Shown: positions 1 to 47,929 of the stretch, piece after piece
How positions within the stretch are numbered: the first letter of the stretch is position 1
Layout of the letters: each line of letters starts with the position of its first letter
Assembly: GCA_029007865.1 (NCBI GenBank)
Contig: JAQXIQ010000078.1
Span: forward strand, 1-52,334
Source of the DNA: Bacillota bacterium
GTDB lineage: Bacteria > Bacillota > Clostridia > Christensenellales > QALW01
Reading direction: 5' to 3'
Length of the DNA stretch: 52,334 nucleotides
Position numbers and translations under genes: made by a program
The notes under the pieces: generated by a model
What the model was told of the DNA's origin: nothing
Database searches by the model: none
Seen by the model: the letters and a program-made list of their open reading frames with translations, nothing else

Positions 1-1470
1 CGCCGTGTCCGCGAGGCCGGAGTGTACAGCGAGGTCATCCCCTGCACCGAGCCGGTGGAAAAATACAACACCCCTGATCTTAAAGGCATAATCCTCACCG
101 GCGGCCCCAACAGCGTAGATGCCGAAGACTCCCTCAGATGCTCCCCCGAAGTCTTTAACCTGGGCGTCCCGATACTGGGAATATGCTACGGTATGCAGCT
201 TATGGCATACATGCTGGGCGGCTCCGTAAGCGCCGCGCAGGTGCCCGAATTCGGCTTCACTCCCATGACCGCCGCCGCTCACCCGCTCTTTGAGGGGCTG
301 GAGGGTGAAAACATCACCTGGATGAACCACCACGATATGGTCTCCTCTCTTCCCGAGGGCTTTGTTTCCATAGGCGTCACCGCGCACTGTCCCAACGCCG
401 CCATGGCCAACGATGCGGCCGGGCTTTACGGCTTCCAGTTTCACCCCGAGGTCAACCACACCAAAAACGGCTATCAGATGCTGCGCAACTTTATTTTCAA
501 TATCTGCCGCTGTGAGGGCGGCTGGAGCGCGGAAAACCTGGCTCAGGAGCTGATAGAGGGAATACGCGCTCAGGTGGGCAGCGGCCGGGTCGTAAGCGGT
601 CTTTCCGGCGGAGTGGATTCCTCCGTCGCCAGCGTGCTGGTGCACATGGCGGTCGGAGAGCGCCTCACCTGCATTTTTGTGGACCACGGCCTGCTGCGCA
701 AAAACGAGGCTCAGGAGGTCATGGACTTTTACGGCAAAAAGCTGGGGCTCAACATCATAATGGTGGATGCCAGAGAGCGTTTTCTGGACAAGCTCAAGGG
801 CGTTACCGACCCGGAGCGCAAGCGCAAGATAATCGGCGAGGAGTTCATCCGGGTTTTTGAGGAGGAATCCTCCAAAATAGGCGCCGACTATCTGGTACAG
901 GGCACCATATACCCCGATGTAATAGAAAGCGGCTTCGGCAAAGCCGCCGTTATAAAGAGCCACCACAATGTCGGCGGTCTGCCCAAGGATGTGCGCTTCA
1001 AGGGGCTGGTGGAGCCTCTCAGGCTGCTCTTTAAGGACGAGGTGCGCAAGCTGGGCGAAAGCCTGGGCATAGCCCATGAGCTCGTCTGGCGTCAGCCCTT
1101 CCCCGGCCCCGGCCTTGCCATACGCATCATGGGCGAAATAACTCAGGACCGTCTCCGCATAGTTCAGGACAGCGACTATATCCTGCGCCAGGAGATAGCC
1201 CGGGCCGGCCTTGACCAGTCCGTGTGGCAGTACTTTACCGTTTTCACCGGTGTCCGCTCGGTGGGCGTTATGGGCGACGAGCGCACCTACGACTACTGCA
1301 TAGCCATTCGCGCCGTCACCAGCAAGGACGCCATGACCGTGGAGTTCGCCGAGCTCCCCTACGAGCTTCTGCGCACAATCTCCGGCCGCATCATAAGCGA
1401 GGTCCCCGGCGTCAACCGCGTAGTATACGACATCACCAGCAAGCCCCCGGGCACCATCGAGTGGGAATAA
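1..1470 (+). CDS. guaA: GMP synthase (glutamine-hydrolysing), 5' end cut by the window edge
   Basis: The frame is open from nt 1 ([14 protein letters not shown]...). A class-I GATase segment ([10 protein letters not shown]) is followed by the ATP-PPase P-loop SGGVDSS and the C-terminal KPPGTIEWE dimerisation tail. Confidence 0.95.
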
Positions 1471-3714: not shown

Positions 3715-4695
3715 ATGCAAAGCAATGTACGCCCGGAGAATATGGAACGCATCAGCACAAAGGCCCTCGCAGAGGCTTTTATCGCACAGCAGATAGCGGA
3801 TATACGCCGTCAGGTAGGAGACAAAAAGGTGCTTCTTGCCCTTTCAGGCGGTGTGGACTCATCGGTTGTGGCCGCCCTTCTGATTAAGGCTGTGGGCAAG
3901 CAGCTGGTATGCGTCCATGTCAACCACGGACTTATGAGAAAAGGCGAAAGCGAGCAGGTAATCGAGGTATTCCGCAATCAGCTTGACGCCAACCTGATCT
4001 ATATCGACGCCACCGACCGCTTCCTTGACCTGCTGGAAGGCGTTTCCGACCCCGAAGCCAAGAGAAAGATCATAGGCGGAGAATTCATAAAGGTATTTGA
4101 TGAGGAGGCGCGCAAGCTGGAGGGCATTTCCTTCCTGGCTCAGGGCACCATCTACCCCGATATCCTGGAGAGCCACGGAGTAAAGGCGCACCACAACGTC
4201 GGCGGGCTTCCCGAGGATATGCACTTTGAGCTGGTGGAGCCCATAAAGCTGCTCTTTAAGGACGAGGTCCGCGTGGTGGGCTCCGCGCTGGGTCTGCCCG
4301 ATTCCATGGTTTACCGTCAGCCCTTCCCCGGCCCCGGCCTGGGCGTCCGCTGCACCGGAGCCATCACCCGCGACAGGCTGCATACCCTGCGGGAATCCGA
4401 CGCCATACTGCGCGAGGAATTCGACAGGGCAGGGCTTACCGACAAGGTATGGCAGTTCTTCACCGTCGTGCCCGATTTCCGCTCCACCGGCGTAAGAAAC
4501 GGCAAGCGCACCTTTGACTGGCCCGTTATCATCCGTGCCGTAAACACCGTTGACGCCATGACGGCCACAGTGCCGGAAATCGAATGGCCGGTGCTCAAAA
4601 GGATCACGGACAGGATTCTGGCCGAGGTTCCCGGAGCGGGCAGAGTTCTTTACGACCTGAGCCCCAAGGCGCCCGCCACAATAGAATGGGAATAA
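3715..4695 (+). CDS. GMP synthase ATP-pyrophosphatase/dimerisation domains only (no GATase domain)
   Basis: RBS GGAGG sits before the ATG. The 326 aa protein aligns by eye along its whole length with residues ~170-482 of the guaA product at 1-1470 ([38 protein letters not shown]). It begins directly at the PPase domain. Confidence 0.85.
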   Translation: MQSNVRPENMERISTKALAEAFIAQQIADIRRQVGDKKVLLALSGGVDSSVVAALLIKAVGKQLVCVHVNHGLMRKGESEQVIEVFRNQLDANLIYIDATDRFLDLLEGVSDPEAKRKIIGGEFIKVFDEEARKLEGISFLAQGTIYPDILESHGVKAHHNVGGLPEDMHFELVEPIKLLFKDEVRVVGSALGLPDSMVYRQPFPGPGLGVRCTGAITRDRLHTLRESDAILREEFDRAGLTDKVWQFFTVVPDFRSTGVRNGKRTFDWPVIIRAVNTVDAMTATVPEIEWPVLKRITDRILAEVPGAGRVLYDLSPKAPATIEWE

Positions 4696-7160: not shown

Positions 7161-8584
7161 AGGCAAACGATTTATTTATTGCATTTGACGAACTGGATGA
7201 CGATATTTTGCAGCGAAGCGAAGCCCCCGTCCCCCGCAGAAAAACACCGATTTTCCGCAAGTGGGTGGCTTTCGCCGCCTGCATTATCCTTGCGGCAAGC
7301 CTAGCAGGCGTCACTTTTGCCGCAGAGGCCAGGGAATACAGCGATGCTGTAGAGTTTTTCCGGGAAAACGGGCTGTCAACAGACGGGCTCAGCCGGTCAG
7401 ATATCAAGGCGGTCTATCGGGACATTACCACCAAGCGCTTTACCTACGGCAAAACAGCCGAAGTCATTGTGCGGGCAGTACCCGGGCTGGAGATTTATCA
7501 GCCCGAAATTTCCCCCGAGGAGCTGGCGGCGCTGTGGGAAAAAGCCGTCCGCAGCCTGCATCCCGGAGACGGAATCAGCTACCGCACGCACACTCAGGAA
7601 AAGCTGGACGAGGCTCTGGGTTATTATGTGCACGACAAGAGCATACTGGAATGCTATCATGACAGCGAGCTGCTCTGGGCCGCGGAGTTTTCCGATTTTG
7701 TTGTGGAAAACAGCATATTCTTCTCCGGGACAACGGCAGTATGGGGGCACAGGAGCACATTGTCCGGCGAAAAATCCACGCATTCCTATGTGGCACGGGT
7801 GGATGAAAGCGGCAGCATCCTGTGGCAGCGTCAGCTTCAGCACGGTTTCCGGCACGAATATATCAGGCAGATACTGGACAACAGGGACGGTACATGGGCG
7901 GTTATCAGTCTGGGCGACTATGAATATTTATGCCTGAGCCTGTATGACAGCAACGGGAATGAGCTTAGCTTCCGGCAGACCGAGATCGGCAATCTGGACA
8001 TCCGTGGCGCCGTCCGCCTGGGCGAAGGCTATCTGGTGCAGCTTTGGAACGGTTCGGACGGCGAAACGGCCCGGCTTGTCAGACTGGACCGCGAAGGGAA
8101 CCTGCTGGATACCTTTACCTATGAGGCGGAGGATTGCATCTACACAATAAACTGTATGCTGGAGTTTGAGGGTCGGGTGTACCTGTCCGCATACGCAGTA
8201 CCCAAGCAATACGACAAAGGAGGACGGCACGAAATAGCCGATATTCTGAAATATATGGATGAAAAGAACCCGGAAATCTCCGATGAGGAGCTGACCGCTT
8301 TGCTGCGGGACAACTACACCGCGGTGCTGTTGGTGTGCGACCGCGAGAGCGGTGTGCCGGAAAAATTCTATTCAGTATACGGCTCCCTGGGCGGAGCGCT
8401 GAGCGTTAATGACGCAGGGGAACTGGCGTGGGATGTCGAAAACATAGTAAGCGCCTCCTCTTCCCCGCTTACCAGTGCATTCTCCATCCGAGGCACCTGC
8501 CGGGTGCTCCGCTGCACCTTTGACGGCTCGGGAAACCTGCTAAGCAAGGAGGACACCGGAGAAATCGCGCCGTATTTCAGATAG
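7157..8584 (+). CDS. Sigma-associated single-pass membrane protein (putative anti-sigma/sensor)
   Basis: Its GTG overlaps the sigma gene stop (GTGA). A short acidic N-terminus (FDELDDDILQ) is followed by one TM helix (WVAFAACIILAASLAGV) and a ~400 aa extracytoplasmic domain. Confidence 0.65.
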   Translation: MKANDLFIAFDELDDDILQRSEAPVPRRKTPIFRKWVAFAACIILAASLAGVTFAAEAREYSDAVEFFRENGLSTDGLSRSDIKAVYRDITTKRFTYGKTAEVIVRAVPGLEIYQPEISPEELAALWEKAVRSLHPGDGISYRTHTQEKLDEALGYYVHDKSILECYHDSELLWAAEFSDFVVENSIFFSGTTAVWGHRSTLSGEKSTHSYVARVDESGSILWQRQLQHGFRHEYIRQILDNRDGTWAVISLGDYEYLCLSLYDSNGNELSFRQTEIGNLDIRGAVRLGEGYLVQLWNGSDGETARLVRLDREGNLLDTFTYEAEDCIYTINCMLEFEGRVYLSAYAVPKQYDKGGRHEIADILKYMDEKNPEISDEELTALLRDNYTAVLLVCDRESGVPEKFYSVYGSLGGALSVNDAGELAWDVENIVSASSSPLTSAFSIRGTCRVLRCTFDGSGNLLSKEDTGEIAPYFR

Positions 8585-17709: not shown

Positions 17710-19668
17710 TTATTCCTCAACCGGCTCGACATCGTCCAGGATTTCGTCCTCAATGCCGTCCTCCTCGGGCAGCAAAGCCTTGATGCTAAGGCTGATGCGC
17801 TTGTTGGCGGCGTCGCAGTTAAGCACCACGGCATCCACCTCGTCGCCCACCTTGAGAACCTCCTCCACCTTTTTGATGTAGCGGTTCACAATCTCGGATA
17901 TGTGTACCATTCCGTCAATGCCGGGAGCGATGTTGACAAACGCGCCGAAGGAAGCAATACGCACAACGGTGCCGTGCACCACGGTGCCCTGCGCGAATCT
18001 TTCCTCGGCATCCGCCCACGGCTTGGGCAAAAGCTGCTTGCGTCCAAGAGAGATCTGCTCCTTCTCCCTGTTGAGAGAAAGCACTACGACCTCGACTTCA
18101 TCGCCTATGTTCAGGCAGTCGCTTACCTTGCCTATACGGTACCAGGCAATATCTCCGATATGCAGCAGACCGTCATAGCCGCCGATATCCACAAAGGCGC
18201 CGAAATCGGTGATCCTGCGCACAATGCCCTTTACGACATCGCCCTCATGTATATTGCTCCAGAACTTCTCCGCCTTTTCCGCCTGCTCCTTGGCCAAAAC
18301 CGCAGCACGGGAAGCCACTACTCTGCGCTTTTTGGTGTCCACCTCCAGCGCAGTAACGGTAAAGGTTTCGCCGGCAAACTTGGTAAGGTCCTTGACATAG
18401 CCCTTAACGCGGATCTGGGATGCGGGAATAAAGACGTGTATTCCGTCAAGCTCAGCCATAAGCCCGCCCTTTACCGCTTCCTTTACCGTAACTTCAAAGG
18501 GCTCGCCGCTGTTGATCTGACTGAGCATCTTATCCTTGAGCAGGCGCTCCTCAATGGCTTTCTTGGACAGAGTTACGTTGCCGTTGCCGTCGTTGACCTT
18601 TATGATCTCGACCTCTATCTCGTCTCCGGGCTTGACCACCTCTCTGGGGTCGGTGTCGCCATTGATGGTAAGATTCTCTTTGGATATAAAGCCGTCCGAC
18701 TTATATCCTATGTTGACGCCTACCTCGTTTTCGTCAACATAAATGACCGTTCCCTTGATCTGCTGTCCGGGTTTGATTCTGACCAGCGCTTTGCCCATCT
18801 CCTCAATAAAGTCAGAATCCTGTGTCTCGAGCTTATCCTGTTCGCTCATTCTAGTTACAACCTCCTTAATTACCCGGTCGGGCGTGGATGCACCCGCCGA
18901 TATCCCTATGACATTGATATTATTAAAATTGATTTTACCGAGCTCTTCCGAGCTCTCAATCGCATAGGTTCTGTTTTGTTCCTGCTTGCACAGTCTGTAG
19001 AGCTTATTTGTGTTGGAGCTGTTCCTGCCGCCGATGACTATCATGCAGTCGCATTTTCCGGCCAGCTCCTCCGCCTCCTGCTGTCTTGCAGATGTCGCTG
19101 CGCATATTGTATTATGCACTTCTACATTATAACCGCTTTTTGAAAGAAATTCAACGATTATTTGCCACTTTTTTTGATTTGTTGTTGTCTGGGCCACCAA
19201 ACAGATGATTTTTTCGTCCTTTTCCAGCTTTTGTGCCTCTTCAAGGCTGTTGATTACCTCCGCACTGCCCTCGCAGTACCCGTTTATGCCCACAACCTCC
19301 GGGTGCTCGCTCTCCCCGACTATGACTATCCTTTTGCCCTGCGTATATGCCGCCTCAACGGTTCTCTGTATTTTGGCAACGTACGGGCACGTCGCATCTA
19401 TAACGGTAATGCCCCTACCGGCAAGCGTTTCCCTGACCTGCTTTGCACATCCGTGAGAGCGTATCACTACGGCCTCCGTATTGACCTCCTCCGGGCTTGC
19501 CGCTGCCTTTACCCCGAGTTGCTCAAGCTCGGACACAACCTGCGGGTTATGTATTATGGGCCCCAGAGTTGAAAGCGAGGCGTACCGCCCGATACTTTCG
19601 TAAACCATATTGACGGCTCTCCTGACTCCGAAGCAGAAGCCCGCGCTGCGTGCAACCAGTATCTTCAT
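17710..19668 (-). CDS. ispH: Bifunctional 4-hydroxy-3-methylbut-2-enyl diphosphate reductase / ribosomal protein S1-like (four S1 domains)
   Basis: The N-terminus is LytB/IspH (MKILVARSAGFCFGVRRAV, three Cys ligand regions). The C-terminal ~370 aa carry four repeats of the S1 motif (G.V..I..FGAFV). Confidence 0.9.
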   Translation of the reverse strand: MKILVARSAGFCFGVRRAVNMVYESIGRYASLSTLGPIIHNPQVVSELEQLGVKAAASPEEVNTEAVVIRSHGCAKQVRETLAGRGITVIDATCPYVAKIQRTVEAAYTQGKRIVIVGESEHPEVVGINGYCEGSAEVINSLEEAQKLEKDEKIICLVAQTTTNQKKWQIIVEFLSKSGYNVEVHNTICAATSARQQEAEELAGKCDCMIVIGGRNSSNTNKLYRLCKQEQNRTYAIESSEELGKINFNNINVIGISAGASTPDRVIKEVVTRMSEQDKLETQDSDFIEEMGKALVRIKPGQQIKGTVIYVDENEVGVNIGYKSDGFISKENLTINGDTDPREVVKPGDEIEVEIIKVNDGNGNVTLSKKAIEERLLKDKMLSQINSGEPFEVTVKEAVKGGLMAELDGIHVFIPASQIRVKGYVKDLTKFAGETFTVTALEVDTKKRRVVASRAAVLAKEQAEKAEKFWSNIHEGDVVKGIVRRITDFGAFVDIGGYDGLLHIGDIAWYRIGKVSDCLNIGDEVEVVVLSLNREKEQISLGRKQLLPKPWADAEERFAQGTVVHGTVVRIASFGAFVNIAPGIDGMVHISEIVNRYIKKVEEVLKVGDEVDAVVLNCDAANKRISLSIKALLPEEDGIEDEILDDVEPVEE

Positions 19669-24001: not shown

Positions 24002-24634
24002 TCATTTTTTCCGATCAAGCCACTGCGGCAGAGCGCAGATATCCTTGAGCACTGGGCCGTATTTTTCCAGCTCCTCCGCCGCCTTGTGTCCTCCTGCCAG
24101 GAATACGGCGTCGGCATTTATGTGCTTTGCCACAAGCGCATCGTGCGGGGTATCCCCCACAAACAGAAAGCCTGCATGCGGATAATCCGCGGCCAGCCTG
24201 CGCGCCAGATGCTCCTTGCCGCTTGCGTGAATATCGTCGGTGCCGTACAGGCGCGCAATGCCGTGCAGGCCGGTCTTGCTTATCTGCCTCTCCAGATGGT
24301 CAAGGCGTGAGGCGGACAGCACGACGCTGACGTATCCCTCGCGGTTAAGCCTGTCCACGGTGTCCTGCGCCCCCGCCCTGAGCCCGCAGGAATCGCTCAG
24401 CGGCTGATATATCGACATATACTCCTCCGCCAACACCTCAAATGGGGTTTTATCAAAATCAAACCCTATGCTCCTGTAATACTGCCGCACCGGAAAGCCG
24501 AACACCTGTCTGTACTCCCCATCACTCAACATCGGCAGCCCGTGCCGTGCCAGCAATGTGTTTATGCTTTTAACGCACACATCAAAATCGTCAAACAATG
24601 TCCCGTTCCAGTCCCAGACGATATGGGTTATCAT
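24002..24634 (-). CDS. HAD-superfamily hydrolase (phosphoglycolate-phosphatase-like)
   Basis: Motif I is VWDWNGTLFDD (Asn replaces the second Asp). Motif III/IV is VGDTPHD. Confidence 0.75.
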   Translation of the reverse strand: MITHIVWDWNGTLFDDFDVCVKSINTLLARHGLPMLSDGEYRQVFGFPVRQYYRSIGFDFDKTPFEVLAEEYMSIYQPLSDSCGLRAGAQDTVDRLNREGYVSVVLSASRLDHLERQISKTGLHGIARLYGTDDIHASGKEHLARRLAADYPHAGFLFVGDTPHDALVAKHINADAVFLAGGHKAAEELEKYGPVLKDICALPQWLDRKK

Positions 24635-24828: not shown

Positions 24829-24840
24829 AACACTAAAGGC

Positions 24841-25102
24841 TATGAAGGGGAGCTTAAACATCTCCATGCGCATTCCCAGAGAGCCGCGGCAAGGTGCAAG
24901 CGCGGCAGTGCGATGATGTTTCGGAACGCCCCGGAGCTTCCGACCGAAAGCTTTTTTTGCAAGTAGGCTCGGACGGGCAGCCCGTTACAGCAAAAAGCAT
25001 ACTTGTGCTTAAAGGAGTTCTGTACAAAGGCGTACGGTTCAGTTGGGTGGTACCGCGAGGTTACGGCTTCGTCCCAAGCTAAGGGATGATGCCGCTTTTT
25101 TA
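24841..25102 (+). promoter_or_regulatory. T-box riboswitch leader (tRNA-sensing attenuator)
   Basis: The Stem I AG-bay is AGAGAG (24878-24883). The distal loop carries GGTGCAA (24892-24898). The T-box sequence is AGTTGGGTGGTACCGCG (25041-25057). The terminator pairs GGCTTCGTCCC (25065-25075) with GGGATGATGCC (25083-25093), followed by GCTTTTTT. Confidence 0.85.
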
Positions 25103-25169
25103 TTACCCGGCAAGAGCCTGCGTCTTTTGTTTTTCCGGCACTGCTAAGCACCGAAAGGACGGATACGAC

Positions 25170-27239
25170 ATGAAAAGGAGCTGTTACTGCGGAAGCCTCC
25201 GGCTTTCCGACATAGGCAGGCACATAATTGCTCAGGGCTGGGTCCAGAGCAAGCGCGACATGGGCGGAGTTATCTTTATCGACCTGAGGGACCGAGAAGG
25301 CACGCTTCAGGTGGTCTTTGACGCCTCCAACCTTACAAGGGAGCATTTTGCCGCCGCCGAGCAGCTGAAAAACGAAAGCGTTATCAGCGTAGAGGGCGAC
25401 ATCCGCCACCGCAGCCAGGACACCTACAACCCGCGCATAGCCACGGGCGCCGTTGAGCTCAAGGCGGTCAGCCTGGAGGTGCTCTCCGAGGCGGAGCCCC
25501 TGCCCTTCCCGGTGGACGGTCATGCGCCGGTACGGGACGAGCTGCGGCTTAAATACCGTTTCCTGGACCTGCGCAGGCCCGCCATGCTGCAGAACCTCAG
25601 GCTCCGTCAGGCCATAGTGACCGCCGCGGAGGAATACCTGCGCGCGGACGGCTTCCTGCAGGTGGAAACCCCCATGCTCACCAAGAGCACGCCCGAGGGC
25701 GCACGGGACTATCTTGTCCCCTCCAGGGTGCATCCCGGAGAGTTTTACGCCCTGCCCCAGTCCCCGCAGGTGTTCAAGCAGCTGCTTATGCTGGGCGGGA
25801 TAGACAGGTACTATCAGGTGGCGCGCTGCTTCCGCGACGAGGACCTGCGCGCCGACCGACAGCCGGAATTCACCCAGATAGACATGGAGATGTCCTTTGT
25901 CGGGCAGGAGGATATCCTTGAATTTCTGGAAAAGCTGTTCCGCCACATCTTCAAAAGCGTAAGGGGCAGCTATCCCGAGCCCTTTGCCCGCCTCACCTGG
26001 CAGCAGGCAATGGATAAGTACGGCACCGACAAGCCGGATCTGCGCTTTGATATGCCCATAACCGACATCACCCATATAGCCCGCGGCTGCTCGTTTTCCG
26101 TGTTCCGCAGCGTCTGCGACGCCGGCGGCACCGTGCGTGCGCTCTGCGTCAAGGGCGGAGCCGCCTTTACCCGCGGCACAATAGAGGAGCTTACCGCCAA
26201 GGCTCTCTCCTACGGCGCCAAGGGCATGGCCTGGATAGCCATAAAGGAAAACGGCGAGTATAACTCCATACTGACCAAATACTTTACCCCTGCCGAAATG
26301 CAGGCCATAGTCTCCGAGGTTAAGGCGGAGCCGGGCGATTTCATACTGTTCGGCGCGGACAGCGTTGCGGCGGTGCGCCGGACTCTGGGCCAGCTGCGCC
26401 TGGACATAGCCGACATACAGGGCCTGCGCAGCAGCGAGGATTACAAATTCCTGTTTGTCACCGACTTTCCCATGTTTGAATACTCCGAGACGGAAAAGCG
26501 CTTTATGGCCATGCATCACCCCTTTACCATGCCCTACGCCGAGGATCTGCAGTACCTGTTTTCCGACCCGGCCAGGGTGCGCTCTCAGGCCTACGATGTG
26601 GTGCTTAACGGCACGGAGCTGGGCAGCGGCAGCATCAGAATACACCGCCGCGACATCCAGCAGACGGTATTTGAGGCTCTGGGCTTTTCGGACGACGAGA
26701 TACAGAAGCGCTTCGGCTTTTTCGTGGACGCCTTCAGATACGGCGCACCCCCGCACGGCGGCTTTGCCTTCGGGCTGGACCGCTTTACCATGCTGCTTGC
26801 CGGCGCGCAGTCGCTGCGCGACGTTATAGCCTTCCCCAAGCTCAAGGACGCCTCCTGCCCGATGACATGCGCACCGGGCACGGTAAGTGCGCAGCAGCTT
26901 GCCGAGCTTTCCCTTGCTCCCTCGGAGCAGAGCGAAGCACATTCAGCGCGCAGGGCCGCGGTGGAGGTGGACACGCGGCGCACCGCGGCGCTGTCCAAGC
27001 TGTCCGTTGACAGCTCGCAGCAAGCGGATATGAAAAAATCCCTTGAGGAAATGGCGGGCTTCGCCTCCCAGCTTTTGCAGGCCGGAGGCAGCGAGCAGTG
27101 CACGGAATTCGTAGGGCCTCTGCGCAACGTGCTGCGCGAGGACGAGGTCATCCCCTGCGCAGGCGGAGGCACCGACCTGCTCGCCGGAGCTCCGGAGGCG
27201 GCAGAGGGCTGCATTTTCGTACCCAAGGTGGTACAGTAA
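25170..27239 (+). CDS. aspS: Aspartate--tRNA ligase fused to a C-terminal GatC domain
   Basis: The ATG at 25170 lies downstream of the T-box terminator. The AspRS part has an OB anticodon domain, class-II motifs (FRDEDLRADRQPEFTQID; GLDRFTMLL...AFPK) and a GAD insert. The last 92 aa (26961-27236) carry GatC signatures (LSKLSV, LRNVLREDEV, FVPKVV). Confidence 0.9.
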   Translation: MKRSCYCGSLRLSDIGRHIIAQGWVQSKRDMGGVIFIDLRDREGTLQVVFDASNLTREHFAAAEQLKNESVISVEGDIRHRSQDTYNPRIATGAVELKAVSLEVLSEAEPLPFPVDGHAPVRDELRLKYRFLDLRRPAMLQNLRLRQAIVTAAEEYLRADGFLQVETPMLTKSTPEGARDYLVPSRVHPGEFYALPQSPQVFKQLLMLGGIDRYYQVARCFRDEDLRADRQPEFTQIDMEMSFVGQEDILEFLEKLFRHIFKSVRGSYPEPFARLTWQQAMDKYGTDKPDLRFDMPITDITHIARGCSFSVFRSVCDAGGTVRALCVKGGAAFTRGTIEELTAKALSYGAKGMAWIAIKENGEYNSILTKYFTPAEMQAIVSEVKAEPGDFILFGADSVAAVRRTLGQLRLDIADIQGLRSSEDYKFLFVTDFPMFEYSETEKRFMAMHHPFTMPYAEDLQYLFSDPARVRSQAYDVVLNGTELGSGSIRIHRRDIQQTVFEALGFSDDEIQKRFGFFVDAFRYGAPPHGGFAFGLDRFTMLLAGAQSLRDVIAFPKLKDASCPMTCAPGTVSAQQLAELSLAPSEQSEAHSARRAAVEVDTRRTAALSKLSVDSSQQADMKKSLEEMAGFASQLLQAGGSEQCTEFVGPLRNVLREDEVIPCAGGGTDLLAGAPEAAEGCIFVPKVVQ

Positions 27240-27320: not shown

Positions 27321-28766
27321 ATGAGTCAGATAACTTCCTACACAGTAACCCAGCTTATAAGCCAGAAGAAGCAAGGCCTTACCAGCCTTGATATAACCCT
27401 TGCCTATCTTGAGCGCATAAAGGCAAGCGGCAATAACGCCTATATCACCGTGACCGAGGAACAGGCGCTGCGGCAGGCAAAGGAGGCCGACGCGCGCACC
27501 GACGCCGGAGACTTAAGCGGCATCCCCTGCGCGATAAAGGACAACATCTGCACCAAAGGCATACGCACCACCTGCGCCTCCCGGATGCTGGAAAGCTTTG
27601 TTCCGCCATACAGCGCCACCGTTGCGGAGAAGCTGAATGCCGCGGGCTGCGTGACCCTGGGCAAGCTGAACATGGACGAGTTCGCCATGGGCTCCTCCAC
27701 CGAGACCAGCTATTTCGGCCCGACGCTCAACCCGCGCAATACCCTGTTCGTGCCCGGCGGCAGCTCGGGCGGCAGCGCGGCGGCGGTTGCGGCCTGCGAG
27801 GCTCCGTTTGCGCTGGGCAGCGACACCGGCGGTTCCATACGCCAGCCCGCCGCATTTTGCGGAGTGGTGGGCATGAAGCCCACCTACGGCCGCGTTTCCC
27901 GCAACGGGCTTGTGGCCTTTGCCTCGTCTCTTGACCAGATAGGCCCCATCACCCGCTGCGTGCAGGATAACGCCCTGATTCTGGACAGTATATGCGGGCT
28001 TGACCCCATGGACTCCACCAGTCTGGACTCACCGGCCGACTGCTCCTCCGATATCGGCAAGGATATAAAGGGTCTGCGCGTGGCTCTGCCGCCCGAGTTT
28101 CTCTCGCACGGCGTAAGCGATGAGGTGCGCTCTGCCATACTCAATGCGGCGCATACTCTGGAAGCCCTGGGAGCCGTGGTAACCCAGGAGCCCATGCCGT
28201 CGCTGCAGTACGCCCTGCCCGCCTACTATGTCATATCCTCCGCCGAGGCCTCCAGCAACCTGGCTCGCTTTGACGGCGTAAAATACGGCTACCGCACAAA
28301 GAATTTCGAAAGCATAGACGACATTTACAAAAACAGCCGCTCCGAGGGCTTCGGCAGCGAGGTCAAGCGCCGCATAATGCTGGGCTCCTTCGTGCTGAGC
28401 GCCGGCTACAGGGACGCCTACTACAAAAAGGCTCTCAGCGTGCGCACGGCGGTTATAAACGATTTTAAGCGGGTGTTCTCAAAGTGCGACTGCATACTCT
28501 CCCCTGTAGCACCCACTGCGGCATGGAAGCTGGGGCAGCACATGAGCGACCCCATGGCCATGTATATGGCGGATGTCTTTACAGTTCCGGTAAACATTGC
28601 GGGGCTGCCGGCGCTTTCTCTGCCCTGCGGGATAGGCGCAGGCAGTCTGCCCATAGGCGCACAGCTCATAGGCGACCGCCTGTCCGAAAGGCTGCTCTAC
28701 CGGTGCGGCTACGCCCTGGAGCAGGCGTTAAACATAACTTTTGACAAGGAGGACAAGTCCAGATGA
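27321..28766 (+). CDS. gatA: Asp/Glu-tRNA amidotransferase subunit A
   Basis: Amidase signature [12 protein letters not shown]; the sequence is GatA-like throughout. Confidence 0.95.
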
Positions 28767-30199
28767 ACGGTTACGAAATGGTCATAGGTCTGGAGACCCA
28801 TATCGAGCTTAAAACCAAATCCAAGATATTCTGCTCCTGTTCAACAGCCTTCGGAGCGGCGCCCAATACCCAGGTCTGCCCCGTATGCACGGGTATGCCG
28901 GGTACCCTTCCGGTGCTTAACGCCCAGGCTGTGGATTACGCCGTGACCGCAGGTCTTGCCACAAACTGCACCATTGCCTCCTTTTCCAAGCTGGACCGCA
29001 AGAATTATTTCTATCCCGACCTGCCCAAGGCATACCAGATATCGCAGTACGACCTGCCGCTGTGCAGCAACGGTTATCTCACGATCGAGACCCCGGAGGG
29101 TGAAAAGCGCATCGGCATAACCCGCATACACATCGAGGAGGACGCGGGCAAGCTCATCCACGGCAAGGAGGGCACCTATATCGATTTTAACCGCTGCGGC
29201 GTACCCCTTATCGAGGTGGTCAGCGAGCCCGACCTGCGCAGCGCCGCCGAAGTCAAGGCATACCTGCAGAAGCTGCGCGCCATAATGCTTTACATCGGCG
29301 TGTCGGACTGCAGGATGAACGAGGGCTCTCTGCGCTGCGACGTTAACCTTTCGGTGCGCAAAAAGGGCGAGCAGGCCTTCGGCACCCGCTGCGAAATGAA
29401 AAACCTGAACTCCTTTGTGTTTATCACCAAGGCCATAGAATACGAATTCCGGCGCCAGTGCGAGCTGCTGGAGCACGGCGGACGGGTGGAGCAGGAAACC
29501 CGCCGCTTTGACCAGGCGACCGGCAAGACCTACTCCATGCGCTCCAAGGAGGAGGCGGACGACTACCGATATTTCCCCGACCCGGATCTGCCGCCAATAG
29601 AGATCACTCCCCAGAGGCTGGAGCGTCTGCGCAGTGCCATTCCGCAGCTTCCCGACAAGCGCAAGCAGGATTATATACGCCTCTTCGGGCTCCCCTCCTC
29701 CTGCGCCGAATTGCTGGTGTCGGACAAATACGTCGCCGATTACTTTGAGCAGGCCGCTCCGCTGTGCCGCGATAAAGTCGAGCTTGCCAACCTGATAACG
29801 GGGGAGATATTCCGCCTTATGGGAGAGAATAACGCATCCGTAATCCCGGTAAGCCCCGCGCATCTTGCAAAGGCCGCGGACATGGCGTCGGAGGGCGAGA
29901 TCAACAGAGGCACCGCCAAAAAGCTGATAGCCGCTCTCTGGGAGGAAAACTGCGACCCGGCAGAATATGTGCGCAGGCATAATCTGCGCCAGATAAACGA
30001 CCCGGACACCCTGACGGAGCTGTGCCGCAAGGCCGTTGAGCAAAACCCGCAGGCACTCCGGGATTACCTGGGAGGCAAGCAGGCCGCGCTCCAGGCGCTG
30101 CTGGGCAAGGCAATGGGGCTGGCCTCCGGTCAGGCCAACCCGGCGCTGCTGCGGCAGAAGATGGACGAGCTGTTAAAGGAGCAGGCCGAGGGCAAATAG
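28763..30199 (+). CDS. gatB: Asp/Glu-tRNA amidotransferase subunit B
   Basis: A 4-nt overlap links it to gatA. The N-terminus [10 protein letters not shown]...[15 protein letters not shown] and the C-terminal YqeY-like tail are GatB-like. Confidence 0.95.
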
Positions 30200-30296: not shown

Positions 30297-30315
30297 TATC
30301 CTACCCTCCCCTTCC

Positions 30316-30345
30316 CTAATCTAATCTATCCTAATCTAATCTATC
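30316..30345. repeat. 15-bp tandem repeat, 2 copies (CTAATCTAATCTATC)
   Basis: Exact copies at 30316-30330 and 30331-30345. Confidence 0.9.
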
Positions 30346-30354
30346 CTTCCCTGT

Positions 30355-30571
30355 GTCTCCGGTTTGGCTCCGGTTTGTCTCCGGTCTGTCTCCGGTTTGT
30401 CTCCGGTCTGTCTCCGGTTTGTCTCCGGTCTGTCTCCGGTTTGTCTCCGGTTTGTCTCCGGTTTGTCTCCGGTTTGTCTCCGGTTTGTCTCCGGTTTGTC
30501 TCCGGTTTGTCTCCGGTCTGTCTCCGGTCTGTCTCCGGTTTGGCTCCGGTCTGTCTCCGGTTTGGCTCCGG
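30355..30571. repeat. 11-bp tandem repeat, about 19-20 copies (GTCTCCGGTYT)
   Basis: The array is uninterrupted with only T/C and T/G variants. It has no stop codon in any of the six frames, which explains the overlapping artefactual ORFs. Confidence 0.95.
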
Positions 30572-30758
30572 AAAGCAAAATAACGCCGCCCGGCACCGGA
30601 AAACCGTTTTCCCGGACGCTTAGACGGCGGAAAAGACACAAAAAACACAATATGCGGCATGCGGCATTGTGTTTAGCATAATTTATGCTATAATATATAC
30701 GGGAGCGCCGGACGGATCGCGCATTCCCAAAATTCCGCAGTGCTTTCATGAGGTTACA

Positions 30759-32339
30759 TTGGAAAACAAAAATGCTGCCCGCTTTGTAAAGGGCGCTGCC
30801 ATACTGGCGGCGGCGGGCGTAATATGCAAAATAATAGGCGCGGTATACCGGATACCGCTTACCAACCTTATCGGCACCGAAGCCATGGGGATATACTCCA
30901 AGGCTTATCTGCTCTACTCTCTGCTGTGGGTGGTTTCCACCTCGGGGCTGCCCTCCGCCATTTCCAAAAAAGTGGCGGAATACCGCAGTGCCGGAGACCC
31001 GGGAGGCGCCAGACGGCTGTTTCTGCTCTCCCAAAGGCTCCTGCTTGCGCTGGGGGCGGTCTTTACCCTGCTGATGATACTGTTTTCCGACGTCATTGCC
31101 CGCTCCCTGGGTATATCGGAGGGCGGAATCGCAGTAATTTGCATCGCGCCCTCCCTGCTGCTGGTGGCCGCCGCGTCCTACATGGGCTATTTTCAGGGAA
31201 TGCAGCAGATGCTTCCCACCGCCGTGTCCCAGGTCATAGGCTCGTCCGGAAAGCTGGCCCTGGGCATCACTCTGGCTCTGCTGCTGAGGGACAGGGGGCC
31301 TGTTTACGCCGCGTCGGGCGCCCTGCTGGGCGTTACAGTCAGCGAGCTGATATCGGTTATATATATACACGCCAAGTACCGCAGATGGGACAAAAAACAC
31401 CCCTGTCCGCCTCCTGAGGACTGCCGCAGGCCCGCAGCACTGCTCAGGGAGCTGATACGCCTCGCCCTGCCCATAACGCTGTGCGGCGCGGTAATACCCC
31501 TGCTCAACACTCTGGACGCTTATCTTGTGACCTACTGTCTTGCCTTCAAAGGTTACGCGGAAGCGCAGATAAATGCGATGTACGGCGTGCTCAACGGCAT
31601 GGTAAGCTGTCTTGTAAATGTACCGGGCTCCATCGCGCTGTCGGTTTCCGCCTCGCTGCTGCCGCTGGTAAGCGGGTGTAAGTACAAAAACGACAGCCGG
31701 GGCATAGCCTTTTCCTCCTCGTTTGCGGTAAAGCTGGCGCTTATTCTGGGGCTGCCCTGCGCCATCGGGCTGTTTGTGCTGGCCGAGCCCATAATAGGCT
31801 TTCTGTACCCGGTAAGCGCAGCCGTGACCGCCGCACAGCAGCAGCTTGCCGTAACCCTTTTGCGATGCGTCTGCCCCGCAATAATAGGCCTGTGTCTGAT
31901 GCATTCCCTGACCGGTGCGCTTCAGGGTGCCGGAAAGACCGGACTGCCCCTTATATCCGCAGCCGTCGCAGCCGTCATCAAGCTGGTTCTGGGCGCGGTG
32001 CTGATGCTGTTTACCCCCCTTGACATTATAGGCGCGCCCGTTGCCTCCAGTGTCTGTTTTCTTGTTGCGGGGCTGCTGAATGTGATATTTGCATACCGCC
32101 ACTGCGGACTGCGGCTGCGCCTGCGTGAGCTGCTCCCTGTTGCCGGAGCCGCCTCGGTAATGGCATGCGTATGTCTTGCCGCTCAGTTTTTAAGCCGGTT
32201 TGCGCTCAGCACCCCCGCTATGCTTATAACTGTTGCGGTGTGCGCATGCGTATACTTCGGTCTGCTTTACGCCTTCAAGGCTCTCTCCGCCGACGAGCTT
32301 GCACTGCTCCCCTTTGATTTCAGACGCCGCCGCAAATAA
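30759..32339 (+). CDS. MOP-superfamily flippase (MurJ/SpoVB-like polysaccharide or lipid II flippase)
   Basis: GAGG lies 5 nt before the TTG at 30759. The N-terminus FVKGAAILAAAGVICKIIGAVYRIPLTNLIG and ~14 TM helices fit the family. The ATG at 30669 would add 30 non-conserved residues and overlaps the promoter-like TATAAT at 30689. Confidence 0.8.
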   Translation: MENKNAARFVKGAAILAAAGVICKIIGAVYRIPLTNLIGTEAMGIYSKAYLLYSLLWVVSTSGLPSAISKKVAEYRSAGDPGGARRLFLLSQRLLLALGAVFTLLMILFSDVIARSLGISEGGIAVICIAPSLLLVAAASYMGYFQGMQQMLPTAVSQVIGSSGKLALGITLALLLRDRGPVYAASGALLGVTVSELISVIYIHAKYRRWDKKHPCPPPEDCRRPAALLRELIRLALPITLCGAVIPLLNTLDAYLVTYCLAFKGYAEAQINAMYGVLNGMVSCLVNVPGSIALSVSASLLPLVSGCKYKNDSRGIAFSSSFAVKLALILGLPCAIGLFVLAEPIIGFLYPVSAAVTAAQQQLAVTLLRCVCPAIIGLCLMHSLTGALQGAGKTGLPLISAAVAAVIKLVLGAVLMLFTPLDIIGAPVASSVCFLVAGLLNVIFAYRHCGLRLRLRELLPVAGAASVMACVCLAAQFLSRFALSTPAMLITVAVCACVYFGLLYAFKALSADELALLPFDFRRRRK

Positions 32340-44881: not shown

Positions 44882-46729
44882 TTATCCGTCAATTTTGGTC
44901 GTTGCCGTGCGTTTTCCGGCCGGCAAGCCCGTTGTCTGCGCCCGCAGCCGCGCAAATATCCTGTTTGCTATGCCCTGCGCATCCAATCCGCAGGTCTTCT
45001 GTTGAGCAGACACGGGAGCGTGCAGGGCAAAACCCTTTTCTCCGCTTATGCACAGCAGGCGGGAGGCGTCAATAATGGCGGATACCGCTTCCCCAAGTCC
45101 TCCGGGCGCCGCATTGTCCTCCGCGACGCATACCACGGGTGCAGTAATGGAGCGCAGCAGCTCCGTATCGATGGGACTTATAAAGCAGGCGTTGATAACG
45201 CAGGCGCTTACCCCCCGCTCCTCCAGCAGCTCGGCTGCCCCGACCGCCTGCCCCAGCAGCGCGCCGAAGGCGATTATGACGGCGTCGGCGCCGTGCCGCA
45301 CGGTCTGCCATCTGAAAAGCTCGGTGTGCCCGATGTCGGCGTCCATTCCGCAGCCCTTGGGGTAGCGTATGGCGCACGGCCCGGGAAGGGTCAGCGCAAG
45401 CTCCAGCATATCACGCAGCTGGCTGTTGCACGCGGGAGCCATTACGGTTATTCCGTACTGCCTCAGAATGGCTATATCGTATGCTCCCTGATGCGTGCGT
45501 CCGTCCTGTCCGACAAACCCGGCTCTGTCCACGCACAGCGTTACCGGCAGCCTGTTAAGCATTATATCATGGAAGATCTGGTCCGCGCCTCTTTGCAGAA
45601 ATGTGGAATAAATGGCGGCAAACGGCCGCATTCCGCCCTTTGCCAGTCCTGCGGAAAGCCCTAACGCGTGCTGCTCGGCAATGCCCACGTCAAAAAAGCG
45701 CTCCGGAAAGCTTGCGGCAAAGCCGCTCAGCCCCGTGCTTCCCGTCATTCCGGCAGTAACGGCGCATACGCGTTTGTCCCGCCCGGCAAGCTCGGTAAGC
45801 ACGCTGCCGAAGCAGGAGGTAAAATCCTGTTTGCTGCTTTTGGGTGCCCCGGACGGCGCCACGCCGTGGAATGCCGCGGGGTTTTGCTCCGCCTCCGCGC
45901 TGCCTTTGCCCTTTTTTGTGCGGACATGTACTATAACGGGCACCGTTTCCTCTTTTGCGCGCCGCAGTATGTTTTTAAGCTCGCGGATATTGTGACCGTC
46001 CACAGAGCCGATATATTTTATGCCCATGTTGTCAAACACGGTATTGCCTATAAGAATATAGCGGAAAAGGTTTTTAATGCTGAGCGCGGCGCGGAACAGA
46101 TATCCGCCCACCAGCGGAATACCCTTCAAAAAGCGCTCCAGGCCTCGCTTGAGCCCGGCATATCCGCGCGCCGTCCTGAGCTTTACCAGATGCCTGGAAA
46201 TGGCGCCGACATTGCGGGAAATGGACATTTCGTTGTCGTTGAGCACAATTATCAGCGGAGTCTTGTTGTAGCCCAGGTCGTTTACCGCCTCCAGATTCAT
46301 ACCGCCTCCGAAGGCTCCGTCCCCCACTACGGCCACTATATGAAAATGCTCTCCCTTGATGTCCCTTGCCCTTGCAAGGCCCAGAGCCGTGGATACCGCT
46401 GTAGCGCTGTGTCCCACGACAAATGGGTCATGCTCGCTCTCGTCAGGGTCGGGAAAGCCGCCCGTACCGTTTTCCGAGCGCAGATGCTCAAGGCTCCGCC
46501 CGGTGAGCAGCTTGTGCGTATAGGTCTGATGCCCCACGTCGAACACCAGGCGATCCTTGGGGGAGTCAAAGACGCAATGAAGCGCAAGCGTCAGTTCCAC
46601 CGTCCCCAGGTTTGAGGCCAGATGACCGCCGTTTGCGCTTGTAGCCCGCAGCAGCTCCTCCCGTATATTCCGGGCAGCCTCTGCAAGCTGTTCATCATTC
46701 ATCGCCTTGATTTCTGCAATGCCGTACAC
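44882..46729 (-). CDS. dxs: 1-deoxy-D-xylulose-5-phosphate synthase
   Basis: The GTG at 46729 overlaps the upstream stop (TAGTG). The protein shows GGHLASNLGTVELT, DVGHQTYTHKLLTGR and the TPP motif GDGAFGGGM...LNDN. Confidence 0.95.
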   Translation of the reverse strand: MYGIAEIKAMNDEQLAEAARNIREELLRATSANGGHLASNLGTVELTLALHCVFDSPKDRLVFDVGHQTYTHKLLTGRSLEHLRSENGTGGFPDPDESEHDPFVVGHSATAVSTALGLARARDIKGEHFHIVAVVGDGAFGGGMNLEAVNDLGYNKTPLIIVLNDNEMSISRNVGAISRHLVKLRTARGYAGLKRGLERFLKGIPLVGGYLFRAALSIKNLFRYILIGNTVFDNMGIKYIGSVDGHNIRELKNILRRAKEETVPVIVHVRTKKGKGSAEAEQNPAAFHGVAPSGAPKSSKQDFTSCFGSVLTELAGRDKRVCAVTAGMTGSTGLSGFAASFPERFFDVGIAEQHALGLSAGLAKGGMRPFAAIYSTFLQRGADQIFHDIMLNRLPVTLCVDRAGFVGQDGRTHQGAYDIAILRQYGITVMAPACNSQLRDMLELALTLPGPCAIRYPKGCGMDADIGHTELFRWQTVRHGADAVIIAFGALLGQAVGAAELLEERGVSACVINACFISPIDTELLRSITAPVVCVAEDNAAPGGLGEAVSAIIDASRLLCISGEKGFALHAPVSAQQKTCGLDAQGIANRIFARLRAQTTGLPAGKRTATTKIDG

Positions 46730-47295
46730 TATTTATCGCCCTTATCGGCAACAGACATTATCCTGCCTATGGTAAAGACAATGCTCTTGCTCTTTTTATG
46801 CGCCACGGTCTTGCCGAAGGCCTTGCCGCCTATGGTCAGGCACGCCACGCATGCGCTTATAATAATGGATATCCACAGCCGGAGCGTCTCACTGCTTCCC
46901 GACGCCGCCGACATAATCATATACACTATGGCCGTTGTGGCGGCACCGGTGACAATGCCGCATATATCCCCTATGACATCGCAGCAAATGCTGGCCACCT
47001 TTTCGTTATTGCGGATAAGCCGCAGTGCCGACTTTGCGCCCTTGACCCTCCGGCTGGACATTGCCACCAGGGGCGCAGGGTCGCAGACCGTCACGGCGGT
47101 GCCTATAATATCGGCAAATATGCTTATGGCTATAAGCAGCAGCAGTATCAGCACCGACAGCAGGATGGATGCGGAATTTGTAACCGATTCGGCCAAAAAG
47201 GAAAAAACAACGGTGAGAGCAAAAGACATGGCGGTAACAACGGCAGTCCACCGCGCTCCCGATAGCTTTTTATGGTGTTTTTCTCTGTCCTTCAT
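46729..47295 (-). CDS. oapA: Four-TM membrane protein, proposed OLE-associated protein A
   Basis: The 188 aa protein has four predicted TM helices. It lies directly downstream of the structured ORF-free RNA region and is translationally coupled to dxs. This is the ole-oapA-dxs arrangement known from Firmicutes. Confidence 0.6.
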   Translation of the reverse strand: MKDREKHHKKLSGARWTAVVTAMSFALTVVFSFLAESVTNSASILLSVLILLLLIAISIFADIIGTAVTVCDPAPLVAMSSRRVKGAKSALRLIRNNEKVASICCDVIGDICGIVTGAATTAIVYMIMSAASGSSETLRLWISIIISACVACLTIGGKAFGKTVAHKKSKSIVFTIGRIMSVADKGDK

Positions 47296-47299
47296 TGCA

Positions 47300-47894
47300 A
47301 AAAGTTCTCCAAAATGAGGTGGCAGCCTGCCCTGTAAACCTTGCGGCTTAGGTCGAGCCGGATTTCCCTGCGGACTGCTCCCCGTCGCCGATGAAGCGGT
47401 TTCCCTTTAAAGTCCGTACGGCAAGATCGCTCCGTGCCGCGCTCGATAACCACTCAGACCGCACTATAATCCATGGCAGGCATATTCAGTCTAGGGGATT
47501 TCCCCGACAGCAGAAATTGCCTCTAGCCTCTTTTGCAGCAAGGATTTCAAAGAGCGATCGCCTCGCGCGACATGGCCGTGACGCACGGACGTTGTTCCCT
47601 TTTCCCTCATTGCCACTTCAAGGCAGGCTACACTGTACACAGCGGCCTCGCCACCGCATAGCAGGTTCTTCATACCCAGTAACACCTCCCGTGAGGCAGT
47701 TACCCAAATATGTCTCCACGGAGGCTGGGTCAACGCCCGCATGCCATTGCGGATCGCCCTTCCTCCTTAACTCCCAGCACAGACCCCAAACTGGGCGTTC
47801 AAAGCCTGCACCAGAAACTTCATCGATATGCCCTTTGACGATAGTTTAACCCCGCCTTCAAGACAATCAATGCTGACTAGAATACTGTACCACC
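47300..47894 (-). ncRNA. ole: OLE (ornate, large, extremophilic) RNA candidate, ~595 nt
   Basis: The ~690 bp GC-rich gap has no credible ORF and carries its own consensus promoter. It contains many short GC hairpins (e.g. GGGGAAAUCCCC, CCUCACGGGAGG). The length and position, immediately upstream of a 4-TM protein-dxs-nadK-argR-recN cluster, match the described OLE locus. Confidence 0.6.
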
Positions 47895-47900
47895 GTAACT

Positions 47901-47929
47901 ATTATAACACAGTGCCGGAAAAATTTCAA
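47901..47929 (-). promoter_or_regulatory. Consensus sigma-A promoter driving the OLE-like RNA
   Basis: On the minus strand: TTGAAA (47929-47924), a 17 nt spacer, then an extended -10 TGtTATAAT (TATAAT = 47906-47901). Confidence 0.75.

Follow-up and report, generated by a model that had tools for sequence, protein, structure and literature searches.

On the indirect route, Asn-tRNA-Asn is made by way of a mischarged and potentially toxic intermediate. In the Asn-transamidosomes, an aspartyl-tRNA synthetase (AspRS) of the non-discriminating kind, the amidotransferase GatCAB and tRNA-Asn come together, and with a bacterial-type, GAD-containing AspRS these assemblies are dynamic and weakly associated (PMC3367201). 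How bacteria with such weakly associating synthetases keep Asp-tRNA-Asn from translation is debated (PMC3367201). Within GatCAB, both the folding of GatA and its binding to GatB require GatC (PMC2330236). In Clostridium acetobutylicum, as reported in papers that cite the original work (PMC4574755; PMC4206432, citing Saad 2012/2013), an operon for tRNA-dependent amidation is controlled by the NT-box, a tRNA-Asn-responsive T-box with an 8-nt specifier loop. Here we describe a 52,334-nt stretch of DNA from a Bacillota bacterium (contig JAQXIQ010000078.1), referred to below as the window, in which the AspRS gene aspS runs in frame into gatC and is followed by gatA and gatB. This aspS~gatC fusion is real, conserved and functionally coherent, and represents a new, diverged member of a known architecture.

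As a first-pass annotation of the window had claimed, the aspS frame continues past the C-terminus of AspRS. The open reading frame (ORF) spans 25086-27239 on the forward strand and is stop-free across the transition from AspRS to the tail, both in the ORF list and in the raw sequence; the AspRS C-terminus (...AFPKLKDASCPMTCAPGTVSAQQLAELSL) runs into the tail with no stop codon separating them. The product, encoded at 25170-27239 (+) without an internal stop, has 689 amino acids and ends at a TAA codon (27237-27239). The ATG at 25170 was taken as the start because the resulting N-terminus, MKRSCYCG, agrees with the consensus of 15 orthologues, MKRTxYCG. It is preceded by a Shine-Dalgarno-like AAAGGA (25154-25159, +), read from the sequence 10 nt upstream, and the upstream ATG at 25086 falls within the terminator hairpin of a T-box leader described below.

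The first 582 residues (25170-26915, +) constitute an AspRS moiety of the bacterial type, as judged from NCBIfam, Pfam and PDB alignments, with an OB-fold anticodon-binding domain (tRNA_anti-codon, residues 22-104), a class II catalytic core (tRNA-synt_2, 123-558) and a GAD insertion (312-406). Both AspRS equivalog models are passed with ample scores (NF001750, 815.6 bits against a cutoff of 443; TIGR00459, 719.7 bits against 373.85), whereas the archaeal-type non-discriminating AspRS model TIGR00458 is failed (235 against 368), as expected because the enzyme is bacterial-type. In a sequence search of the PDB, AspRS chains, among them that of the Pseudomonas aeruginosa transamidosome (4wj3_M), align to residues 1-582/594, and no PDB chain covers the tail. 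Between the two moieties lies a linker at about residues 583-597 (26916-26960, +), delimited by an alignment of 16 fusion ORFs, by the ratio of nonsynonymous to synonymous substitution (dN/dS) and by the predicted local distance difference test (pLDDT). In the window it is about 14 residues long, and in relatives it can reach about 26; its sequence varies as well as its length, and it contains no conserved motif in that alignment. In an AlphaFold2 model of the monomer, whose mean pLDDT of 69.9 makes it indicative only, residues 581-596 score below 50 and the tail has helices at 602-608 and 615-636, the expected place of the N-terminal helices of GatC. The linker is thus predicted to be disordered or flexible.

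The tail, residues 598-689 (26961-27239 with the TAA, +), is a GatC homologue, as had been proposed from its residue pattern; its assignment draws on PF02686, TIGR00135, phmmer and dN/dS. A search with the GatC profiles gave a divided result for the window itself: PF02686, placed at residues 616-684, is passed (gathering score 23) both by the full protein, with 25.4 bits, and by the isolated tail, with 29.4 bits and E 9e-7, while TIGR00135, which aligns residues 603-688 to positions 7-92 of a 93-position model, reaches 30.6-36.2 bits and remains under its cutoff of 47.1. Across the orthologues, a GatC domain is found in 16/16 fusion ORFs (best E 3.7e-22 with Pfam and 4.7e-26 with TIGR00135), and for this reason the match is far beyond chance. 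An exhaustive phmmer search with the tail retrieved free GatC-sized proteins at 29-46% identity; the 65 matches are mostly free GatCs, together with 5'-truncated fusion fragments, and the cluster representatives among them include no full-length fusion. One or two of the matches, P0173 on inspection and perhaps also P0121 (3750 aa), are to repeat proteins and have the appearance of artefacts. The window tail keeps the motifs N653-V-x-R-x-D658 and V684-P685 as well as the hydrophobic helix positions. By the Nei-Gojobori method, applied to seven locus pairs from three subclades, dN/dS is 0.05-0.16 for the AspRS core, 0.10-0.30 for the GatC tail and 0.23-0.66 for the linker, and the tail is under purifying selection. 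Such selection is indirect support for a GatC-like role, in which the tail would stabilize GatA by binding and connect it to GatB.

Downstream of the fusion, the genes for the other two amidotransferase subunits are full-length by Pfam. The amidase subunit gene gatA (27321-28766, +) scores 504 bits against PF01425, in an alignment that spans profile positions 1-444 of 445, and has GGSSGGS in its translation, and the kinase/transamidase subunit gene gatB (28763-30199, +) matches GatB_N with 419.7 bits and GatB_Yqey with 113.4 bits. The spacer between the aspS~gatC stop and the gatA start measures 81 nt, one less than first given, and the start of gatB overlaps the stop of gatA by 4 nt, as had been noted. 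GatC is therefore coded directly upstream of gatA-gatB, and the operon has no other gatC, in agreement with the first-pass annotation. Searching the whole 52-kb window with the tail and the AspRS core by tblastn revealed no second gatC, aspS or asnS. The window likewise holds no asnA/B, no glnS, no free gatC and no tRNA genes.

The main addition of the present analysis is the link between this operon and an asparagine-specific T-box. Between aspS and a divergent HAD-hydrolase gene (24002-24634, −) lies a T-box leader, a tRNA-sensing riboswitch, at 24833-25079 (+), with an AAC (Asn) specifier at 24925-24927. It aligns to RF00230 over the full length of the model (1-219) with 86 bits (E 2-4e-19) and misses the gathering score of 93. 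Sequence hallmarks of a T-box are present: the specifier loop contains AAC-G, GGGUGGUACCGCG includes the UGGN bulge, and there is an alternative terminator that ends in a U-run. The intrinsic terminator (25065-25101, +), whose arms and T-run were read from the sequence, is formed by GGCTTCGTCCC (25065-25075) and GGGATGATGCC (25083-25093), which pair at 10 of 11 positions, one of the pairs being G-U, and leave one U-U mismatch; TTTTTT follows at 25096-25101. The 5' arm overlaps the antiterminator, and the conserved T-box core GGGTGGTACCGCG precedes the terminator.

Twelve such leaders from two orders were compared, namely that of the window and those of loci L001-L007, L010, L063, L081 and L082. 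They score 86-129 bits, and among the 11 orthologous leaders seven exceed 93 (96-129 bits) and that of L004 stands at 93.0. An AAC specifier followed by a purine is present in 12/12. The 3' side of the specifier loop, 8 nt long, reads GAA-G-AAC-A in eight leaders, GAC-G-AAC-A in L001, GAA-A-AAC-A in L007, GAA-U-AAC-G in L005 and UCG-G-AAC-G in the window, so that the string GAAC recurs in 10/12. The NT-box loop of C. acetobutylicum reportedly contains overlapping GAA and AAC codons. The UGGN bulge of the leaders is UGGU or UGGC, which suits the discriminator G73. Because the AAC specifier is found in all 12 leaders, the operon would be induced by uncharged tRNA-Asn, and the conserved T-box would thereby link its expression to the charging of that tRNA. 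Such control supports a dedicated Asn-tRNA-Asn pathway and lends independent support to the earlier suggestion that the operon makes Asn-tRNA-Asn. It also offers the best evidence at hand that the AspRS is non-discriminating and accepts tRNA-Asn, a property for which the linkage to gatAB is further indirect support, and it suggests a GatCAB reserved for asparagine in these organisms.

The AspRS moiety itself can be compared with unfused enzymes, a comparison in which fusion is confounded with phylogeny throughout. In the anticodon-binding domain (window residues 27-31 and 82-91), the fused enzymes have D30/M31 where the unfused have N30 and K or L31, and at residue 84 Glu or Asp replaces the Gly or Ala of the unfused. 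The fused enzymes also carry a one-residue insertion, with the loop D-E-E-T-Y-N-P-K in place of S-G-A-V-N-E-N. Across the whole cores, 18 columns discriminate fully between the two groups, subject to the same confounding. His31 and Gly82 of the P. aeruginosa enzyme are the residues that we take to be diagnostic of non-discriminating AspRS. The differences in the anticodon domain may relate to acceptance of tRNA-Asn, within the limits that phylogeny sets on the comparison.

On this basis we consider it likely that the window contains an Asn-T-box-controlled aspS~gatC-gatA-gatB operon whose AspRS and GatCAB are tethered, and that the fusion originated once among the Clostridia and has been kept by selection. 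The operon would unite four functions in three genes, the first being preceded by the T-box(Asn) leader. By analogy with the mechanism of the T-box family, uncharged tRNA-Asn would pair with the AAC specifier and stabilize the antiterminator, allowing transcription to proceed. The first gene would then yield an AspRS of the bacterial, GAD-containing type whose C-terminus carries GatC by way of a flexible linker of about 14 residues. Since GatC is needed by GatA for folding and for GatB binding, each GatCAB produced from the operon would be covalently attached to an AspRS subunit, and since AspRS is a dimer, the expected particle would be (AspRS-GatC)2·GatA2·GatB2. In this particle, Asp would be loaded onto tRNA-Asn by AspRS and then amidated by the tethered GatCAB to give Asn-tRNA-Asn. 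The tether would hold the mischarged intermediate near the amidotransferase, raise the local concentration of that enzyme where Asp-tRNA-Asn is formed, and set the stoichiometry of the subunits. As transamidosomes with bacterial-type AspRS are weak (PMC3367201), it would also add stability, and channelling within the tethered particle is plausible. In evolutionary terms, the fusion would have arisen in the ancestor of a broad clostridial clade and been maintained by purifying selection.

In a more demanding form of this proposal, GatC would exist in these organisms only as an appendage of AspRS, and (AspRS-GatC)2·GatA2·GatB2 would be an obligate, covalently tethered Asn-transamidosome under the control of a tRNA-Asn riboswitch. 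Our judgement of this stronger version is evenly balanced. If it is correct, the system would be the first natural case of a synthetase and a tRNA-dependent amidotransferase constituting one molecular entity, and GatCAB would be dedicated to asparagine, with glutamine supplied via GlnRS.

The distribution of the fusion can be followed in sequence databases. The best 120 matches to the full window protein are all 685-721 aa long and nearly all have a precomputed GatC Pfam domain; their carriers include Oscillospiraceae, Clostridia, Candidatus Faecivivens and the strain NSJ-31. A protein search started from L010, the most basal fused sequence, brought in roughly 110 more clusters, which are 676-771 aa long and all have GatC; among their sources are Fusibacter paucivorans, Acetoanaerobium pronyense and a Peptostreptococcales metagenome-assembled genome (MAG). 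A survey for long AspRS proteins with a GatC tail, which the first-pass annotation had put forward, thus yields a total of about 230 distinct protein clusters (676-771 aa) from NCBI, ENA, JGI and Logan assemblies, spread over two clostridial orders. Scanning the GTDB species genomes returned 80 loci, 16 of which are long (L001-L015 and L063). Intact ORFs of 690-701 aa ending in [FY]xxVP[KR] are present in 15/16; gatA comes next, after about 10-200 nt, in 15/16 and gatB in 14/16, the short contigs of L012 and L007 ending first. In the cultured species F. paucivorans and A. pronyense, AspRS~GatC, gatA and gatB occur in this order without a separate gatC. Together with these two, the GTDB fusion loci make up 18 genomic loci from Oscillospiraceae-like and Peptostreptococcales Clostridia. 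The remaining 64 loci of the scan are mostly from Lachnospiraceae and 50-54% identical; the AspRS is 589-593 aa long and unfused in the five that were translated, and neither gatA nor gatB lies within about 6 kb of the unfused AspRS in any of the 64. The closest GTDB AspRS to that of the window is 70% identical.

In a neighbour-joining tree of AspRS cores from which the tails had been trimmed, all 17 fused sequences group in a single clade that includes no unfused enzyme, which, within the limits of the sample, fits one ancestral fusion. No fission of the fusion was found in the 18 loci or the roughly 230 clusters. Some members of the family depart from the common form. In L008, L009 and L013, all Clostridiaceae MAGs, the downstream gatA-like gene is 30-33% identical to the window GatA (47-66% in other loci), NVFRED of the tail is replaced by NSTRKD, and a T-box is missing; these loci may hold a diverging version of the system. 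The 216-aa protein P0141 consists of the first ~110 AspRS residues (the anticodon-binding OB fold), a linker and GatC, the catalytic core being gone, and might have arisen by misassembly or by a genuine deletion.

Two groups of observations weigh against the proposal of a tethered, asparagine-controlled and selectively maintained system, namely the uneven distribution of the T-box and the divergence of the GatC tail in the window. The T-box is missing from 7/16 GTDB fusion loci, which belong to two subclades (L008/L009/L013 and L011-L015), and Asn-specific regulation is for that reason not universal. The spacers upstream of the fusion in these subclades are short and lie beside divergent genes; a hisS-aspS arrangement was looked for in them and not found.

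That the Asn T-box was lost or never present in two subclades speaks for the most durable of the alternative explanations, in which a near-neutral loss of the stop codon joined the genes and the fusion has been kept for co-expression and 1:1 stoichiometry, the moieties working independently on a leash without any channelling. The missing motif in the linker agrees with such an origin, and so do the operons of other Clostridia in which aspS and gatCAB are separate genes, as far as these are described in PMC4206432, citing Saad 2012. However, a single origin retained across two orders, with no fission in either set of sequences, suggests at least a mild positive value of the fused state, and the biology of transamidosomes (PMC3367201) provides a direct rationale for proximity. 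We regard the near-neutral explanation as rather unlikely, though it deserves more weight than those that follow.

The second group of unfavourable observations concerns the tail itself. Only 20/31 of the clade-conserved positions are kept in the window. Position 647 is Phe in the window and in its relative P0001 and His in all 38 relatives compared, and position 667 is Gly in these two proteins and Arg in 37/38. P0001 is 96% identical overall to the window protein, with 97% identity in the core and 92% in the tail, and has no precomputed GatC Pfam call. The window tail, which has Cys at 644, 662 and 681, is a derived, diverged copy of GatC that scores below the TIGR00135 cutoff. These features would be accounted for if the GatC tail were decaying in the lineage of the window, having lost H647 and R667, and functional GatC were provided from elsewhere in the genome; the 25-bit GatC score, the lowest of the set (the best E value of the orthologues being 3.7e-22), and the greater divergence of the tail than of the core from P0001 speak for such decay. 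Against it, the frame is intact over 92 codons, in which NVxRxD, VP and the hydrophobic positions of the helices survive, the 52-kb window contains no other gatC, and the downstream gatA and gatB are intact. Decay of the tail is, in our estimation, improbable.

We assign a similarly low probability to the explanation that the fusion is made but releases free GatC, either by internal initiation at GTG 26961 or by proteolysis of the linker, after which an ordinary GatCAB would do the work. A variable linker that is predicted to be disordered could be accessible to proteases, and residues 598 and 600 of the window protein are coded by in-frame GTG. The first-pass annotation had suggested that free GatC might start at the GTG at 26961, a suggestion that the sequences do not support: no Shine-Dalgarno sequence precedes this codon, and in L005, L007, L012 and L063 the stretch between the start of the linker and the end of helix 1 of GatC is free of in-frame ATG, GTG and TTG. 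Across the fusion loci examined, there is no conserved internal start position and no start codon with a Shine-Dalgarno sequence at the GatC boundary, and an internal start was accordingly rejected. The simpler solution of a stop codon followed by a ribosome-binding site, as found before gatA, which in many loci has a strong GGAGG just past the fusion stop codon, has not re-evolved at this boundary in any of the 18 loci. With no stop between them and no conserved internal start, AspRS and GatC are, as far as the reading frames can show, made as one polypeptide.

The remaining explanation, that a missed stop codon or frameshift has artificially joined separate aspS and gatC genes, is scarcely credible, since its one point of support, a frame break inside the tail of L001 (CP091722.1), lies in an A9 homopolymer and is matched by an intact, near-identical fragment (P0122), while the ORF is continuous in 15 independent GTDB loci, two cultured isolates and about 230 protein clusters, and a start codon with a Shine-Dalgarno sequence occurs at the GatC boundary in no locus. 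In L001, an Oscillospiraceae MAG chromosome and the closest relative in GTDB, the break falls at about 7855-7865, and the other frame restores a complete tail. It is probably a long-read consensus error, and a frameshift of this kind could lead to annotation of the gene as a truncated aspS.

The rest of the window is ordinary chromosomal DNA of an uncultured, Oscillospiraceae-like member of the Clostridia, with guaA, a GH42 β-galactosidase gene, an ABC transporter, an ispH-S1 fusion, cmk, hrcA-dnaK-dnaJ, recN, an NAD kinase gene, dxs and an OLE RNA as neighbours. The OLE (Ornate Large Extremophilic) RNA, at 47303-47909 (-), matches RF01071 over model positions 1-616 of 616 with 476.8 bits, and no other Rfam match in the window reaches its gathering threshold. 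On the same strand, immediately downstream, an ORF of 188 aa (46729-47295) has a weak match to CNNM-type transmembrane proteins (26.9 bits, cutoff 28.4), and dxs and the NAD kinase gene come after it. A second natural fusion is encoded at 17710-19668 (-), where the product of a 652-aa ORF has IspH/LytB at residues 3-274 and, fused to it, four S1 RNA-binding domains, an arrangement known in Clostridia. Two GMP-synthase-related genes lie close to each other at 22-1470 (+) and 3715-4695 (+); one encodes GATase and GMP_synt_C, the other an NAD_synthase-like ATP-PPase and GMP_synt_C without a glutamine amidotransferase domain. Most of the spacer between gatB and a MurJ/Polysacc_synt-like gene (30669-32339) is filled by an 11-bp tandem repeat, TGTCTCCGGTT, at 30354-30571 (19.8 copies, 92% matches), which gives rise to spurious ORFs for repeat peptides on either strand; just ahead of it stands a 15-bp repeat (30315-30347) with 2.2 copies.

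The novelty that the first-pass annotation attributed to the fusion holds only in part. In the literature searched we found no experimental study or description of a natural AspRS-GatC fusion, although a passing mention in Saad 2012/2013, Blaise 2010 or Sheppard & Söll 2008 is possible, and no paper characterizing it was encountered. However, the databases already contain the approximately 230 clusters, mostly with a precomputed GatC domain, under the names 'aspartate--tRNA ligase' (NCBI) and 'Multifunctional fusion protein' (UniRef). As the NCBI name is plain, pathway reconstructions may wrongly call gatC missing. In addition, the NCBIfam model NF009460/PRK12820, 'bifunctional aspartyl-tRNA synthetase/aspartyl/glutamyl-tRNA amidotransferase subunit C', describes the same architecture; the model, of 723 positions, aligns with window residues 5-658, through AspRS, across the linker and into GatC. 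The cutoff of the model is 1379 bits, of which the window protein reaches 628.7, and all the orthologues stay far below it, the best of the 16 having an E value of 2.6e-202. Because the scores are so far under the cutoff, the clostridial clade would belong to a different lineage from that of the model. The AspRS-GatC architecture is thus known to curators from another lineage, and the present clade falls outside the NF009460 equivalog.

Compared with free-standing GatC proteins (PF02686/TIGR00135), the tail shares the length of about 92 aa, the N-terminal helices, NVxRxD, the C-terminal [FY]xVP[KR] and the place directly upstream of gatA-gatB, but it lacks a separate start codon, is joined to the C-terminus of AspRS and scores below the TIGR00135 cutoff. 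GatC is likewise covalently joined to a pathway partner in the gatC-gatA fusion polypeptide of Mycobacterium smegmatis (PMC7541841). By the title of that paper, however, the M. smegmatis fusion is a forward-genetics mutation that causes mistranslation and that links GatC to GatA, not a conserved natural architecture. The C. acetobutylicum operon resembles that of the window in being clostridial and in placing an AspRS, there an extra one, and the amidotransferase under a T-box. According to the papers that cite its description, in which GatCAB is treated as a unit, its proteins are separate, whereas gatC of the window is part of aspS.

The Asn-transamidosomes of Thermus thermophilus (3KFU) and P. 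aeruginosa (4WJ3), and the dynamic complex of Helicobacter pylori, bring together the three activities that are predicted for the operon of the window and share the logic of shielding translation from Asp-tRNA-Asn. The AspRS of the window is of the bacterial, GAD-containing type, as in P. aeruginosa and H. pylori (PMC3367201). The known complexes are non-covalent and tRNA-dependent (PMC3367201), whereas in the window one of the contacts would be a peptide bond. Conserved in two clostridial orders, the fusion can be read as a Rosetta-stone system that provides independent evolutionary evidence for physical contact between AspRS and GatCAB. A comparison of the fused and split enzymes, for which F. 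paucivorans, A. pronyense and strain NSJ-31 are available as cultured carriers, would directly test channelling.

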